Below, in pieces: positions 11,783 through 18,638 of a DNA stretch of 64,000 bases. The position numbers and the translations under genes were made by a program. The notes under the pieces are model-generated. The model saw only the letters and a program-made list of their open reading frames with translations. It did not search any database and had not been told where the DNA came from. How positions within the stretch are numbered: the first letter of the stretch is position 1; each line of letters opens with the position of its first letter. The DNA is from Phycisphaeraceae bacterium (GTDB lineage Bacteria; Planctomycetota; Phycisphaerae; Phycisphaerales; Phycisphaeraceae). Location of the stretch: NCBI GenBank assembly GCA_963674705.1, contig OY771506.1:1472001-1536000 (forward strand). The letters are read 5' to 3'.

Positions 11783-13648
11783 TTAGCGACGACGGATCAT
11801 CGCCAGGCCACCGAGACCGAGCAGCGCCATGGTGGCGGGTTCGGGCACGACGGAAGCGGGCGGGGTGCCTTCGTTCCAGTGGTTCAGCACGGTGTCAAGG
11901 TCTTCCAGGCCGACGTAGCCGTCGCCGGACGGATCGCCCTGAAGCTTATCGCCCGCGGTTACGTTCTGGTTCCAGTTCTGCAGAACGATATCCAGGTCAT
12001 CGAGGCCGACGAAGCCGTCACCATTGAGGTCGCCTTCGAGGACGGTTGTGCCACCGACGTTGGGATAGAACACGCCGTTGATGGTGAAGCCATCAGACGA
12101 GGTGACCGCGACGCTGTCGCCACCTGGGCTGAAGACGTAAGCGAGTTCAGCGGTGTTGCTGGTGACGTAGACGTTACCAGCCAGGTCCATCGCGACCGGG
12201 ACACGCAGGCCGGCGCCGGTGTCGCCGACAGCAATTGCACCGAGCATGATGTCCTGCGGGGTGTAGTCGCCGTTGAATGCCAGACCGGCATCGGTCAGGT
12301 CAAGGACCGGAACGCCGCTGGCATCGAGTTCGATGGCGATCACTTCAGCCGGGCCAAAGAAGTCATTGACACCGCTGGTCGTCGTGGTGCCGGCAAAGCT
12401 GCGGCTCAGGACGATGAAGCTGCCGTCGGGCGAGACGACCGCGTCGGTGGTGGCACGGAAGATGTCCTGGATGCCGTCGAAGTTTTCGACCAGCAGGTCG
12501 TCTTCGGCGCCGTCGAGGTTGTTATCCAGTGAGAACTGGCGTGAGTTGAAGAGGATGGTGCTGAAGTCGCCATCGAAGATCAACAGGCCGGTCTCGTTAC
12601 CGTCGTTACGACGCTGTGTGACGATCCAATTGTCATGCACTTCGTCGTAAGTGAGGTCACTGTCGACGCCCGGGACGTCCGGGAAGAGGATACGGCTGCC
12701 GTCGGAGTTGGTGCCGTTGCCGTTGGGGCCGATCAGGCTGATATCAACTTCGAGCACAGCGCTGCCGCTGTAGCCAGTGGCGCCGGGGTCCGAACCGATG
12801 TCGTAGCGCCAGATGTGCTGGACACTGCCGGCGGCGGTGTTCGGGTCGGTGGATTCCAGGTCTTCATCGATGGTCCAGAGGGTCAGGTCGCCGCCACCGA
12901 GTGAGCCGGTGATGACGGGTGTGCTGACGATGGAGCCGTGGTTCTGGCCGACGATCGGCGGGGTGCCGCCGGGGCTGGCCAGCAGGACGTTACCGGTGGT
13001 GACGGAGGCGTCGGTGATGTACATGCCGCCGTTGGCGTCGGACCAGTCGCTGATGTACAGGGCGTCATCAACACCAACCTGGATGCGGAACGGCGAACTG
13101 CTGGTGCCGGCGAAGTAGCTGCCGAGACCGGCTTGCCGTGCGGCGGAGGTATCGTTGGGGTCGGTGATGCCGTTGATGTCGGTGCCGTCGGCGTTGAAGA
13201 CATAGATGCCGTCACCGAGGGTGCGGCCGGCAGCCGTGCTGATTTCAGCCCGGTGCGAGACGTAGTACTGGCCGAAGCTGGCGCTGCCGGGGTTCATGTT
13301 CACAGCGATGCCGTTGGCACGCTCGAATCCCATCATCGCGTTACCGAGGCTGACGCTGGTTTCATAATAACCGGCGGCTTCGCTGTTGGTGACTTCGATG
13401 CTGTAGGTGCTGAAGCCGGTCATATCGAATGACTTGGCGCCGGCGGCTTCATTGTTGAGGGTGATCGTGTTGCCACCGTCACGGGTGATGACGACCGAGT
13501 CGGCCTCTTCGTTGAGAACCCAACTGACGGTGTTGCCGGACTGCGAAACCTGCGCCGCGTAGGGCACAGCCAGAGCAGTACTGCTCACCGTCACGATAGC
13601 CGCCGAAGCGACACACGCGAGCAGAGCCTTAGTGGAATAGCGAATCAT
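11783..13648 (-). CDS. Large acidic secreted PEP-CTERM protein (probable beta-propeller) with dockerin-like module
   Basis: Signal peptide, blade-like strands (LYISDWS, DLAGNVYVT), dockerin repeats, VPEP-TM-RRR; strongly biased codon usage; AGGAGAAGGA RBS. Confidence 0.82.
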   Translation of the reverse strand: MIRYSTKALLACVASAAIVTVSSTALAVPYAAQVSQSGNTVSWVLNEEADSVVITRDGGNTITLNNEAAGAKSFDMTGFSTYSIEVTNSEAAGYYETSVSLGNAMMGFERANGIAVNMNPGSASFGQYYVSHRAEISTAAGRTLGDGIYVFNADGTDINGITDPNDTSAARQAGLGSYFAGTSSSPFRIQVGVDDALYISDWSDANGGMYITDASVTTGNVLLASPGGTPPIVGQNHGSIVSTPVITGSLGGGDLTLWTIDEDLESTDPNTAAGSVQHIWRYDIGSDPGATGYSGSAVLEVDISLIGPNGNGTNSDGSRILFPDVPGVDSDLTYDEVHDNWIVTQRRNDGNETGLLIFDGDFSTILFNSRQFSLDNNLDGAEDDLLVENFDGIQDIFRATTDAVVSPDGSFIVLSRSFAGTTTTSGVNDFFGPAEVIAIELDASGVPVLDLTDAGLAFNGDYTPQDIMLGAIAVGDTGAGLRVPVAMDLAGNVYVTSNTAELAYVFSPGGDSVAVTSSDGFTINGVFYPNVGGTTVLEGDLNGDGFVGLDDLDIVLQNWNQNVTAGDKLQGDPSGDGYVGLEDLDTVLNHWNEGTPPASVVPEPATMALLGLGGLAMIRRR

Positions 13649-14050: not shown

Positions 14051-14947
14051 TTATTGTTCCCCAGCGATGATTGGAGCTTGGCCGGCCGGGTCCCAGATGC
14101 GGCCGTATTCAAAGACACGAGTGGGTTTGACCCGGAAGCCAGCATCAAAGCGATAAATCTCTTCCTCGGACTTTTTACGTACTTCAGCGTGGCCGTCGCC
14201 AAACCCGAAGGTTGCTCCATCGCTGTGATACCACTTGGTTTTGTCCGCACCACCCGCACTATTGTTTCCGCCAGGAAGATCGCTGAAGAGATTTTCAAAA
14301 AAACCATCATTCACACCAATATTCGATAATCCACCAGGCAAGTTAGCGTCTTCTGCTGGACCACCCTCATCGACAATGAAAATAAAGTTAGAGGGCCGTA
14401 CGATTTTATCTGATTGTGGATATCTGGCAGTACCAACAGTGGTTGCGCCGTCTTTGATGGTTACTTGTTCAGACGGCTCCATGGATGTTATGGCTGCCCA
14501 TGATGGTTGATTTGGATTACGCCGAACATAGCGATAAAGATGGTTGCTTATGGTGTAACTCAAGCCGCTACTAAGATGTGAATACTCGTCCTCTGGACAA
14601 CTAAAGACGCCATAGTCCGGCGTATAATCCCAAATGCTGCCATCCGCCAGATCCACGGTCCCTTCGGGTAATTGAAGACTGTTGCATGGGATCCAGGCCC
14701 CCATGTGTTCATTTTTTATGTCGCTGTAAGCTAACGTAGCCCATCCGGGCCACCATCCCTGGTGATCCGTACCATATGCAACGAATGCAGTTGTTAAGTT
14801 CTTCATGTTGGCTTGGCACACGATCGCACGAGCCGACCGGCGCGCGGCACCAAGCGCCGGCAGCAAAATGCCGACCAGCAGTGCGATGATCGAAATCACC
14901 ACCAGTAGTTCGATCAGGGTAAACGCTTTCTTTTTACTAGCAATCAT
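14051..14947 (-). CDS. Prepilin-type N-terminal cleavage/methylation, H-X9-DG (DUF1559-like) protein
   Basis: [42 protein letters not shown]. Confidence 0.88.
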   Translation of the reverse strand: MIASKKKAFTLIELLVVISIIALLVGILLPALGAARRSARAIVCQANMKNLTTAFVAYGTDHQGWWPGWATLAYSDIKNEHMGAWIPCNSLQLPEGTVDLADGSIWDYTPDYGVFSCPEDEYSHLSSGLSYTISNHLYRYVRRNPNQPSWAAITSMEPSEQVTIKDGATTVGTARYPQSDKIVRPSNFIFIVDEGGPAEDANLPGGLSNIGVNDGFFENLFSDLPGGNNSAGGADKTKWYHSDGATFGFGDGHAEVRKKSEEEIYRFDAGFRVKPTRVFEYGRIWDPAGQAPIIAGEQ

Positions 14948-15012
14948 CGTTCTCATCCTGGTGTTACTTTGTTTTTTAATACAAGCCCGCCAATGTTTAT
15001 ATAGCGATGTGA

Positions 15013-15942
15013 TTATCTGAGGTCCCATTTGTTATTGTCTGGATCAGCATCATAGTCCGTCAACTCGTCCTGCCCATAGGGATTTTCGGGATCGGCGATT
15101 GCGAAGCTATCACCGTGGCCATCGGCCCAGGCGACGTTGATCGAAGAGTTGTGTCGCGGATCGGGGAAGCCCGTGTGGTTGGTCTTGGTTGGGTAGATGT
15201 AGCCCGGGTAGACGTAGCTCATGCCGATCTTGATGTCGATGCCCCTGCCGGCAAGCGTCGTCTCGACTTTGTAGTTGCGTGAATCGGTCAGGGCGATGGT
15301 TTCGGAGGGATTGTCGACGTCGGCGGTGTTCGCGGTTGAACTGAAGACATGCCAATCGGGATGTGCGCTGTTCATGGTTGCGATCAGCGTGCGACTGCTT
15401 TGCGCCCGTGCCGCCGCATCGTTTTTCATCCCCCTGCCGTAACCGGAGCCGAGGTAGTAGACGTTGTAGCCGTACTCGCCAAAGTTCCAGCCTCGCCATG
15501 CGGTGTCACCGGGCGTTTGGCCGGCGGTCATCTGGGTGAAGTCGGAATGGGCGCGGACGCTCTCGGGAACGGGGATCGAATCGAGCGACGGGCAGTCAAA
15601 ACCGAGCGGCCCGGGCAGGTAGCCATCATCGACAAACTTGGCGGTCCACCATGCGCCCGGTTCGCCATTGGAGCCCACCGGTGCTTCCAAAAGACTCTGG
15701 GCATAGTTCACCGGCGCCAGGCTCCATCCGCCGCCGAAGATATAAATCGGGTAGTAGTCCTTGTTATCCGCGGTGTAGGCAATGATCGCGACGCCGGTTT
15801 GCCGGACGTTACTGAGGCAGACTGCTTTCTGGGCACTTTTGCGTGCGGCCCCCAAGGCCGGAAGCAGGATGCCAACGAGCAAAGCGATGATCGAAATCAC
15901 CACCAACAACTCGATCAATGTAAACGCTTTGGTTTTATGCAC
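15013..15942 (-). CDS. DUF1559-like prepilin-type protein
   Basis: [10 protein letters not shown]..., [21 protein letters not shown] start inferred from the upstream AGGA. Confidence 0.88.
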
Positions 15943-16014
15943 GGCTAAGTCCTGGTTTTCAGTTGCCTGACTGTTGCCTACCACAAGCCTGCCTAATATC
16001 AATCCAACCCCTGC

Positions 16015-16911
16015 TTATCGCAGGTCCCACTTATTATCAAGAGGATACCTCAGCGAGTCGGTCAGTTCGTCCGGACCGTAAGGGTCTTCTTCGTCTGCCA
16101 CAGCGAAGCTGTCGCCGTGGCCGTCGGACCAGTACACATTGACCGATGAGTTGTGCCGCGGATCGGCGAAGCCCCATTGCTTCGTTTTGTTCGGCGGATC
16201 GGATGCGGGGAACAGGTAACTCACACCGATCTGAATTTCAGCGCGGCCTTCCATCGATGTCTGCAACGCATAGTTGCGAGAATCTGACAAGCCGATGGTC
16301 TGCGACGCATTGTTCAGGTCCGACGAGCGAGCGGAACGTTTGTAGTCCTCGGTAATAAATGCCGTGATGGTTGGGGTGTCCTTTTTACGTAATCCCAGAC
16401 CCGAGCCGAGGAAGTACGCGTTGTAGCCATATTCTGCGAACTGCCAGCCCTCCCATGCGGTGTCGCCATCGACTTCACCAGCGGTGCATTCAGCAAAGTC
16501 GCGATGCATGTTTGCATTGGTGTTTGGGATTGGGATGGTATCCATGGTTGGGCAGTCAAACGCCAGCGGACCGGGCAGATAGTCGCTTTCCACAAGCTTG
16601 GCGGTCCACCAGGCGCCCGGGCCACTTGCATCGCTTGGGGCCTGCATCGCCCTTTGCGCATATCGATATGGCGCCATATCCCAATTATCGCTGAAGATGT
16701 ACAGCGGGAAGAAGTCATCGTTGTCGGTGCTGTATGAAACCAGTGCGATGCCTGTTTGTCGGACGTTACTCAGGCACACAGCCTTCTGGGCGCTCTGTCG
16801 TGCGGCGCTCAGCGCGGGCAGGAGGATGCCGACGAGCAGCGCGATGATGGAGATCACCACGAGCAGTTCGATCAGGGTGAAGCCGGGAACGCCGACCTTG
16901 GAACGTTTCAT
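16015..16911 (-). CDS. DUF1559-like prepilin-type protein (close paralog of 15013-15942)
   Basis: [10 protein letters not shown]..., [32 protein letters not shown]; same NKWDLR ending as its neighbour. Confidence 0.88.
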
Positions 16912-17259
16912 CAAATTACCTTTCACGCACTTCAAAAACATAAAAAAGATTCAACGCGAATACGAGAGCCGTAAGGCTCCAGGCTGGCTGATCGTGATAG
17001 CTGCCCTGCCGGCGTGGCGTGTGCCGAAGCGGTTTTTGCTCTCAGCATGCCCATGCCCGGGCCAAAATGAACTCGCCCTTCCAGGTAGTTCGGCCCTCTC
17101 ATCCAAAATGACCCACCATACGCTTTACGACCGACACACAAGCCAAAAGAAAAGAACAAAAGCTAAACGGCCGTTGATAATAATATAATATCCCTTTGCG
17201 CTCTCAATGCAACCCCCGACCGGGCGCTTTGTGCCGGAGAATACAGGAATAAAATCACA

Positions 17260-17844
17260 TCATTTACGCATCAAAAGAGCGAGATATTCCATATTTCCGC
17301 CCTTGCCGCCACGGATAGGCGACGAGATGTGGTGGGTCGACATAAAACCCATGTCTTCCAGCTTTTGAAGAATCTGCTCTGTCACGTGTAAAGCCTGATC
17401 GTCGTTCAGCTTCCCCTTACGCCTGCCGCCCATGGCATCGGCGGTCGCTTCGTAGTGAGGCTTGATCAGGCTGATGATCCTGGCATTTGGCGAATCACTC
17501 AGCCAGCGTGCTGCGGCCGGGATGGCGCGGTGTTGCGGGGTCCAGCCAAGGTCCACCGTGACCAGCTCGCAAGGGGCTAAGGGCTCTGTGTGCAAGGCGT
17601 TAGACCGCTCCAGAACGGTGACCCGCTCGTCCTGACGCAGCTTCCAGGCCAGTTCCCCATAAGCGGTGTCCACCGCGTAGACGTGCTTGGCGCCGTGTTG
17701 AAGCAGGCAATCTGTAAAGCCACCCGTCGAACAGCCCAAATCCGCACAGATCAGGCCCGTGGGATCGATCTGGAAAGCCTCCAAAGCGGTGTGGAGCTTT
17801 AAGCCGGCCCTGGATACGTACTTAGGAGTGTCTTGGTCGGGCAT
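17260..17844 (-). CDS. tlyA: TlyA-family RNA methyltransferase lacking the S4 domain
   Basis: YVSRAGLKL, DLGCSTGGFTDCLLQHGA, LIKPHYE, SPIRGGKGGNMEYL. Confidence 0.85.
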   Translation of the reverse strand: MPDQDTPKYVSRAGLKLHTALEAFQIDPTGLICADLGCSTGGFTDCLLQHGAKHVYAVDTAYGELAWKLRQDERVTVLERSNALHTEPLAPCELVTVDLGWTPQHRAIPAAARWLSDSPNARIISLIKPHYEATADAMGGRRKGKLNDDQALHVTEQILQKLEDMGFMSTHHISSPIRGGKGGNMEYLALLMRK

Positions 17845-17931: not shown

Positions 17932-17959
17932 TTGATTTTTCGGGTTTAAGTTTTATTAT
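17932..17959 (+). promoter_or_regulatory. Putative sigma70 promoter for an orphan plus-strand transcript
   Basis: TTGATT-N16-TATTAT in an AT-rich stretch. Confidence 0.4.
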
Positions 17960-17965
17960 GAATAT

Positions 17966-18217
17966 GCAGTAAGTCCCGAACAGGGACGAGGTGCGTTCGC
18001 CTTAAGTAGCCGTATAGGGCTCTGGCGGGCCATCAACATCGTGAGGAGGAGAACCCGAAATCTCCCTCCTTGCAATTTGCATGGGTGTTCGTTGTAATAC
18101 CCTGCGGATGTTGTGGTTAAAGCATCTCAGGTATATTTGATCCCAAGACATCCTACGGAGGGATGCTTGAACGCTGAGACGACCCGTTCCCGCTAAGGGG
18201 GCGGGTCGTGTTTTTTT
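17966..18217 (+). ncRNA. Candidate structured non-coding RNA (family unassigned)
   Basis: Nested stems (see findings), an upstream promoter-like element and a plus-strand terminator, lying between two minus-strand genes. Confidence 0.55.
18179..18217 (+). terminator. Plus-strand intrinsic terminator
   Basis: 13-bp stem ACGACCCGTTCCC/GGGGGCGGGTCGT with two G-U pairs valid only on the plus strand, followed by T7. Confidence 0.8.
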
Positions 18218-18248: not shown

Positions 18249-18277
18249 GAAGCCCACGTTTTGAAAACGTGGGCTTC
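18249..18277. repeat. REP-like palindrome, copy 1 (after iscA)
   Basis: GAAGCCCACGTTT-TGA-AAACGTGGGCTTC perfect 13-bp stem. Confidence 0.7.
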
Positions 18278-18305: not shown

Positions 18306-18638
18306 TCAGGCCTGGAAGCTGCTGCCGCAGCCGCAGGTGGTGGTAGCGTTGGGGTTGTTAAACACAAAGCCCCGTCCCATGATCTCGTCTTTGAAGTCGA
18401 TCGTCGTGCCGTTGAGGTACAGGTAGCTCTTGGGGTCGCAGACGATCTTGATTTCGTGCTGATCAAAGGTCTCGTCGGTATCGCGGTGCTGTTCGGTGAG
18501 GTCCAGCAGGTAGCTGAAGCCTGAGCAGCCCCCGCCCTTGACGCCGACGCGCAGGCGGACGTTTTCCGCATCGAGTTCCTGCTGCTGGATGATGGTCTTG
18601 ATCTCACGAGCAGCGGTTTCGGTGAGGGTGATTGCCAT
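18306..18638 (-). CDS. iscA: A-type Fe-S carrier IscA/HesB
   Basis: GGGCSGFSY and TCGCGSSF; GGAG RBS before ATG 18638. Confidence 0.93.
   Translation of the reverse strand: MAITLTETAAREIKTIIQQQELDAENVRLRVGVKGGGCSGFSYLLDLTEQHRDTDETFDQHEIKIVCDPKSYLYLNGTTIDFKDEIMGRGFVFNNPNATTTCGCGSSFQA

Follow-up and report, generated by a model that had tools for sequence, protein, structure and literature searches.

The locus and its transcript

The window, i.e., the whole stretch of 64,000 nucleotides analyzed here, comes from a Phycisphaeraceae bacterium (genome G000) and contains an intergenic region between a tlyA-like rRNA methyltransferase gene and iscA, beyond which lie iscU, iscS and then an Rrf2 regulator gene (Table 1; the gene starts are those of a rough gene caller). 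An earlier note on this DNA had placed both flanking genes on the minus strand, which was confirmed, and had proposed an orphan plus-strand transcript between them, starting at a TTGATT-16-TATTAT promoter and ending at an intrinsic terminator. Both signals were recovered by the respective scans. As one promoter-like site is what shuffled sequences also yield (mean 0.9), the support for the promoter comes from its conservation: the TTG..-16-TA...T pattern was found by pattern search in 10 of 12 genomes (11 of the genus plus G096 of a sister genus), with the contig of G005 ending there and G010 unmatched. The sequence of the terminator varies among the 12 genomes with its pairing retained; two-sided changes occur at 6 of the 11 pairs, and none of 500 shuffles reached the covariation score. 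An own promoter, an intrinsic terminator and the lack of a conserved open reading frame, as expected of a small RNA, were thus all found. Overall, comparison of the sequences makes a plus-strand non-coding transcript, independent of its neighbors, well supported, and the predicted RNA is very probably real.

Table 1. Position of the features at the locus and of the predicted target (window coordinates unless a genome is named)
Feature	Position	Strand	Remarks
tlyA-like rRNA methyltransferase gene	17260..17844	-	TIGR00478, E 3e-40, below cut-off; divergent neighbor
Sigma-70-type promoter	17932..17959	+	-35 box 17932-17937, -10 box 17954-17959
Strongly folded leader (multibranched domain)	17966..18148	+	start placed from the -10 box
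Candidate relic of the pepX ribosome-binding site	18041..18053	+	matches GTGAGGAGAA-type pepX site; no start codon behind
Pyrimidine-rich strand pairing with the relic in a stem	18061..18073	+	pair probability 0.91
A/U-rich linker ahead of the core	18132..18141	+	A/U-rich spacers also precede the core in relatives
29-nt core	18149..18177	+	6-bp hairpin, open ACGGA loop (18155-18159), 12-nt tail
Intrinsic terminator of the RNA	18179..18217	+	terminator scan and covariation
Separate terminator of the convergent isc operon	18249..18277	-	terminator scan
iscA, last gene of the isc operon	18306..18638	-	TIGR00049, E 3e-38; convergent neighbor
Predicted target, 190-aa PEP-CTERM gene	G000:C1:1181117-1181689		outside the window; paired site 1181071-1181100

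The tlyA-like gene lies upstream of the element in 10 of the 12 genomes, the contig ending there in the other two, and iscA follows it in 9 of the 12 loci; the isc operon is located elsewhere in G009 and on separate contigs in G007 and G003. Neither neighbor has a part in the mechanism considered below. In the tlyA-iscA gap of one outgroup genome (L347), no promoter, terminator or core was found. Elsewhere in the window (14051-16941, minus strand), three tandem genes with prepilin-type N-terminal motifs differ in copy number between relatives.

The 251 nt from 17967 to 18217 fold at -115 kcal/mol (z -6.5; 0 of 200 shuffles as good). Most of the multibranched architecture drawn in the earlier note reappeared in the minimum-energy structure at the same places: the first hairpin, P1, P2, P3, both hairpins inside P3, the CAAG-CAUCCU hairpin and the terminator, with mean pair probabilities of 0.93-1.00 (0.91 for the purine-rich inner hairpin). 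A proposed UCAGGU/AUUUGA hairpin, which needs a 2-nt loop and overlaps P1, was absent, and the suggested alternative GCGUUC/GAACGC pairing, with a probability of about 0.01, is altered in the nearest relative, G004. The 19-codon plus-strand frame that had been pointed out exists (18081). It is not kept in G004, and the other small frames are unshared as well; a conserved peptide was therefore rejected, the 4-codon frame within the core having only 1 nt between GGAGG and AUG.

Comparison of the multibranched 5' domain with G004 revealed no two-sided compensatory change; seven pairs are broken, spread over P1, P2 and the last of the inner hairpins, while P3 and the first inner hairpin are almost identical (43 of 44 positions at 18028-18071). 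The leaders of the other relatives without a gene at this place are 61-184 nt long and have unrelated folds; that of G009, equal in length (183-184 nt), is also strongly folded, in another way. Hence, of the structured non-coding RNA claimed by the earlier note, the independent plus-strand transcript stands and the conserved multibranched architecture does not. The sequences suggest that the conserved, functional part is probably the small last hairpin with its tail and the terminator; this CAAG-CAUCCU hairpin is indeed present and had been listed only as a minor element.

The earlier note had also doubted a 6S RNA and proposed an Rfam scan and a homolog search. Its doubt was justified, since the RNA forms no rod with a central bubble and does not match RF00013. 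Nothing near a gathering score was obtained at the element with Rfam 15 (SRP, raiA, riboswitches and others), the best match (23 bits, E 0.28) lying outside it, and the loci of five relatives gave no match. A probable 6S RNA of G000, a long rod with a central bubble and a terminator, was seen at C1:3994574-3994692 on the minus strand (L012; 36 bits vs. a cut-off of 46.4). The homolog search recovered the core with the terminator in relatives, mostly beside the tlyA-like gene or iscA.

The conserved core and its host gene pepX

The core is identical in 11 of the 12 genomes and carries a single G-to-A change in G003, at a distance where four-fold degenerate sites of the neighboring genes are 42-54% identical to G000 (81% in G004). 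Core and covarying terminator are common to all 12 genomes, as is the promoter within the limits of its pattern search (10 of 12). A nucleotide search of 61 genomes found matches in all 10 other genomes of the genus and in none of the 50 others; outside the close relative G004 they are confined to the last third of the RNA. With a covariance model built from core and terminator, 12 of the 144 genomes of the family scored 85-104 bits; the next-best matches did not exceed 30 bits, and the 18 inspected were terminator-like and coreless where the match was in view. In a class-wide sample of 151 genomes, nothing above 28 bits appeared outside G000, and viral contigs gave no match. A 17-mer scan of genome contigs returned 29 loci, of which those outside Phycisphaeraceae were rejected: they share the hairpin at most, at chance level, and five are 5' ends of tRNA-Ser. 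In a metagenome scan with a 16-mer, which was too short, none of the 80 matches listed, out of at least 119 stretches, extends to the core, and a family pattern search with two mismatches gave mostly noise. A stretch of 14 nt that repeats the core tail in the same sense (G000:3360377), placed in a local hairpin, is within chance and was discarded. The A/U-rich linker ahead of the core might be a processing site.

In six of the 12 genomes (G001, G003, G005, G006, G007, and G008), a 256-aa PEP-CTERM gene, pepX, is located between promoter and core. Its stop codon precedes the core by about 30 nt, and the core thus belongs to the pepX 3'UTR; in these six genomes it lies between stop codon and terminator and shares the parental promoter, as do type II 3'UTR-derived small RNAs. 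The gene is missing at the locus in G000, G004, G009, G010, G002, and G096, and no ortholog was found elsewhere in G000, G004, G009, G010 and G096 (the latter 86% complete), where the best pepX-like identity was up to 51% in G000 and at most 49% in the other four, vs. 64-71% for orthologs. A profile of the pepX promoter-to-start region matched G000 at -227..-91 from the core (E 2.9e-6), and judged by such comparison the promoter in Table 1 is homologous to the pepX promoter of the relatives. In G005, G006 and G003 (L019, L021, L022), a second pepX-like gene was seen 400-520 nt downstream of the terminator.

G010 still carries a decayed remnant of the 3' end of pepX (E 1e-7). G002 falls within a group of genomes that have pepX (98 for the clade enclosing it). 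Another clade (98) unites G000, G004 and G009, whose leaders share one geometry: the -35 box lies 217-218 nt upstream of the core, and a ribosome-binding motif of the pepX type 106-109 nt upstream (trees were built from up to six neighboring genes, with two to four genes for the outgroups). We therefore infer that pepX was lost at least twice, in G010 and G002, and probably a third time in the ancestor of G000, G004 and G009. In G096, the first genome to branch off, the leader is 61 nt long and there is neither pepX nor a relic, which is either a fourth loss or an older state; since this outermost genome is without both, pepX may alternatively have been gained inside an older RNA gene.

The candidate relic of the pepX ribosome-binding site in G000 lies at a distance from the promoter similar to that in pepX. 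Taken alone, the match is weak (UTR-only profile E 0.15 in G000 and 0.021 in G009; range 0.02-0.4), and it is probable that the motif is such a relic. The leaders lacking the gene fold strongly but differently (z -5.6 in G000, -2.9 in G004 and -4.8 in G009), with the relic motif buried in both folds, in G000 against the pyrimidine-rich strand and in G009 in a different long stem. Five pepX leaders tested showed no unusual folding (z +0.5 to -1.8). The leader of G000 (17966-18148) would accordingly be a remnant of the pepX 5'UTR plus a deletion scar, and its multibranched domain a re-folded remnant which may protect the RNA or keep ribosomes off. A decayed PEP-CTERM tail within this leader, suggested by eye, was rejected at E 0.5.

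A predicted target among the PEP-CTERM genes

When duplexes of the core with 4309 start regions of G000 were predicted, the leader of a distant 190-aa PEP-CTERM gene came second by energy and first by the number of pairs in a compact duplex. In this duplex, 27 of the 29 core nucleotides pair with positions -46 to -17 of the target 5'UTR in two blocks of 13 and 14 bp, 9 of the 27 pairs being G-U. Energy alone is not significant genome-wide, as a partner of the same strength turned up for 6 of 13 shuffled cores; a partner with as many pairs was found for only 1 of the 13. Equally good pairing between core and target was reached by 1 of 28,094 core shuffles and by 0 of 13,894 target shuffles, and from the former rate about 0.15 such matches are expected among 4309 genes. 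Reciprocally, when 56,360 intergenic windows were compared, the core complemented the site best. The net binding energy after opening of both RNAs was -10.7 to -21.7 kcal/mol in all 12 genomes.

The target leader occurs in the same 12 of 144 genomes as the core and is covered in none of the other 132, a coincidence which in close kin is not independent evidence. Its paired site has a mean identity to G000 of 96% over ten genomes (G004, too close, was omitted). In comparison, the leaders of 15 control genes, including ribosomal-protein, HU and csrA genes, reached at most 82%; only this maximum is used because identities of diverged control leaders are understated, and one control had a single comparison. 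Conservation of the target leader starts at the first paired base, the hairpin immediately upstream being variable, and 11 paralogous or more distant leaders are without the site. Of the 324 core-target pair cells, 318 are kept, with breaks in G010 (two), G007, G001, G008, and G009. Pair-keeping one-sided changes occur at core positions 12, 13, 14 and 25, including the sole core variant (G-U to A-U), and position 30 is changed on both sides in G009 and broken in G003. Cognate core-target pairs were no better than swapped ones (p 0.12), and covariation is thin because both partners are nearly invariant. Overall, core and target show what is expected of a base-pairing small RNA, a conserved seed and, in the mRNA of a distant gene, a conserved site complementary to it. 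By sequence comparison and duplex prediction the target is a strong candidate, and we consider it likely that the core pairs with this mRNA.

Two other top-ranked predictions, the one with the best energy and a perfect 12-bp one, lacked conservation (2 of 11 and 0 of 5 genomes, respectively). A second target, the PEP-CTERM gene at 11783-13648 of the window, was not supported (z -2.0 to +0.3 in five genomes), and pairing of the core with the leader of pepX itself was no better than in shuffles in five of six genomes. PEP-CTERM genes make up 10 of the 50 top predictions vs. 1-7 for 13 shuffles, which is a weak hint. The gene at 11783-13648 (minus strand), encoding 621 aa, ranks 111 in codon bias and shares with its orthologs a conserved TTCCTCA which lies immediately ahead of the Shine-Dalgarno site and is able to pair with it.

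The target ranks 185 of 4224 in codon bias and its protein is therefore probably abundant; its four cluster paralogs rank 1475-2814. Since the Shine-Dalgarno site, the spacer and the first codons are invariant too, the leader may be constrained in another way. Half of the paired site is predicted to pair with the start region of the same mRNA. Such a start-codon hairpin is the chief reservation, since it could account for part of the leader conservation with no partner RNA; it accounts neither for the invariance of the loop half of the site nor for the finding that the site is best complemented by an unlinked, invariant 29-mer.

Several further features of the target and its relatives were observed. 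The gene opens a tandem cluster of five related PEP-CTERM genes of 190-194 aa (G000:C1:1181117-1184605), of which only the first combines the conserved site and a high codon bias; a loose pattern detects about 420 PEP-CTERM-like genes in G000. Its leader carries two copies of a conserved GTTACT motif, spaced by about 45 nt, one at the 5' end and the other within the paired site (L248:3040-3060, aligned leaders); the first copy is missing in G010, and the motif is possibly protein-binding. In G007 (L301, C89), the target reading frame ends after 46 codons behind an intact leader, by frameshift or assembly error.

Mode of action, alternatives and known systems

A search for hfq found none in 11 genomes, eight of them at least 90% complete, and an Hfq-dependent small RNA was thus not recognized here. 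CsrA is encoded in all 11, with three copies in G000, which also has genes for RNases E, III and Y. The best reading of the sequence data is an Hfq-independent, 3'UTR-born base-pairing small RNA resembling s-SodF and OxyS. With a probability that we place a little short of an even chance, its 29-nt core would pair with the distant PEP-CTERM leader upstream of the ribosome-binding site and lower translation, its own leader being what was left of a deleted gene. The core would have arisen in the pepX 3'UTR, released by processing or acting from the mRNA, and the pepX deletions would have left promoter, core and terminator behind. Pairing might be initiated by the open ACGGA loop at a U-rich loop of the target leader and extend to the 13 and 14 bp without Hfq. 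The duplex would end at -17, beside the Shine-Dalgarno site (-13 to -8), cover a U-rich stretch and perhaps invite RNase III or E, and for these three reasons a lowered translation of the target mRNA would be expected. Repression from such leader positions has been described in the cited parts of the work on s-SodF and on GcvB with yifK (PMC3919588, PMC3879156). Moreover, the variable 5' flank of the RNA can extend the pairing over the Shine-Dalgarno site in all 12 duplex predictions, adding net energy, with the short form of the RNA, in only one of the 12. Provided that pairing takes place, repression appears somewhat more probable than activation.

The same RNA and target might also work in the opposite sense, the core freeing the start codon by taking the 5' arm of the start-codon hairpin (anti-antisense), which we regard as possible but rather unlikely. 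The paired site coincides with the 5' arm and loop of this predicted hairpin, whose 3' arm is formed by the Shine-Dalgarno spacer and the AUG, and the duplex stops exactly where the 3' arm begins. Predicted access to spacer and AUG rises upon pairing from 0.01-0.26 to 0.42-0.51 in eight of the 12 genomes and slightly in the other four; a substitution in G010 makes the hairpin stronger (z -4.0) while sacrificing one of the pairs with the RNA. However, in 10 of the 12 genomes the stability of the hairpin does not exceed that of shuffles (z +0.8 to -1.7; -2.5 in G096), its outer pairs vary, access to the Shine-Dalgarno site drops in seven of 12, and the possible pairing of the 5' flank over that site would act against activation. 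An explanation without base pairing, in which the core binds a protein, most likely as a decoy for CsrA that presents the GGA in the hairpin loop, and the complementarity is incidental, appears improbable. It accords with the invariant open ACGGA loop, the presence of CsrA in every genome inspected and the retention of the GGA though its target pairs are G-U only; it would leave unexplained the invariant 12-nt tail and the matching conserved mRNA site. Only one GGA is looped, the others lying in stems, so the many motifs of a CsrB/RsmZ-type RNA are not found, and this pentaloop has a pyrimidine at N, while high-affinity binding, according to the part of PMC4005645 cited here, needs an ANGGAX hexaloop or a purine pentaloop. 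A helper role of CsrA alongside pairing is possible. As a separate observation, two csrA paralog leaders (G000:C1:2265420-2265495, L052, and 373145-373215, L053) and those of their orthologs are conserved with GGA in predicted hairpin loops, which suggests CsrA autoregulation in this genus.

Somewhat less probable again is a cis-acting role at the 3' end of the pepX mRNA, as a stability or termination aid, with the versions lacking the gene as decaying leftovers. The core always adjoins the terminator and is part of the 3'UTR in half of the genomes, as such an element would be, but it is unchanged in all six genomes without pepX despite leaders diverged beyond recognition, and it is absent from the three pepX paralogs of G000; its pairing with the leader of pepX itself, as mentioned, stays at shuffle level. 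Least probable, with only a very small chance of being correct, is the reading of the earlier note in which the whole 250-nt multibranched RNA is functional, e.g., as a 6S-like or scaffold RNA. The very stable fold, the near-identity of P3 and the first inner hairpin in G004 and the equally long, strongly folded leader of G009 speak for it. The broken and uncompensated pairs, the different folds and lengths in other relatives, the absence of the multibranched form as such where pepX is present, the lack of an Rfam match and the 6S-like rod elsewhere in the genome speak against it.

Viewed more broadly, the pairing RNA would be a genus-wide, chaperone-free riboregulator coupling two surface proteins, a strand-displacement switch on the most prominent PEP-CTERM message which was kept through three or four host-gene deletions, the orphaned leader being re-folded each time and the dead ribosome-binding site buried in two leader types; in this full form the idea is speculative and has perhaps one chance in three or fewer. 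A review of 2022 tabulated eight annotated small RNA families for the PVC group (PMC9029176), and our search of the open-access literature found no small RNA-target pair for Planctomycetota, no small RNA control of PEP-CTERM genes and no description of this RNA. A concrete predicted pair in an Hfq-less lineage is thus offered where regulatory RNAs are almost uncharted. It bears on the birth of small RNAs from mRNAs, with gene-bearing, relic-bearing and gene-less alleles at one locus around an unchanged core. If true, it would be the first small RNA-target pair for Planctomycetota and a living mRNA-to-small-RNA series within one genus.

Among known systems, 6S RNA (RF00013) shares only an independent, structured transcript of about 200-250 nt and differs in the features given above. 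The CsrB/RsmZ decoys (Duss et al., 2014; PMC4005645), as far as the account cited goes, resemble the core in a GGA within a hairpin loop and in the presence of CsrA, and differ in that the core has one motif only, in a sub-optimal loop. GcvB, in the cited part of the work on yifK, pairs just upstream of the Shine-Dalgarno site at a possible translation enhancer (Yang et al., 2014; PMC3879156); it is described as a multi-target enterobacterial RNA acting on ACA enhancers, whereas our site is U-rich and the predictions yielded a single conserved target. UhpU-like type II 3'UTR small RNAs (Chen et al., 2025; PMC12704781) have, in the sections cited, a conserved seed beside an intrinsic terminator, a shared parental promoter and an upstream A/U-rich region, all of which recur here; they are described as stabilized by Hfq or ProQ, with the parental gene retained, while in our genomes no Hfq was found and the host gene is lost in six of 12.

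The closest parallels are OxyS and s-SodF. According to the cited portion of Krieger et al. (bioRxiv 10.1101/2021.10.18.464853), OxyS derives from the 3' end of a peroxidase mRNA and replaces the gene with its promoter kept, which is the origin suggested here; OxyS is a 3' mRNA fragment whose change was traced across an order, in contrast to gene-bearing, relic-bearing and gene-less forms within one genus, with repeated losses around an unchanged core. In Streptomyces coelicolor, the excerpted report on s-SodF describes a 3'UTR RNA of about 90 nt with an antisense hairpin followed by a terminator, acting without Hfq through 18-19 nt of perfect pairing that destabilizes the sodN mRNA, and one sodF2 copy which retains the antisense sequence despite a large coding deletion (Kim et al., 2014; PMC3919588). 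The likeness extends to two stem-loops, the absence of Hfq and a long complementarity with a same-class gene's leader as far as the ribosome-binding site. The effect of s-SodF is demonstrated, while the 27 pairs here, including 9 G-U, are known from prediction; host and target both belong to the PEP-CTERM surface proteins, half of the genomes lack the host gene, and no sequence relation is claimed. Overall, we regard the RNA as a very probably real, previously undescribed small RNA family of a known kind, with s-SodF and OxyS as precedents for its proposed mechanism.
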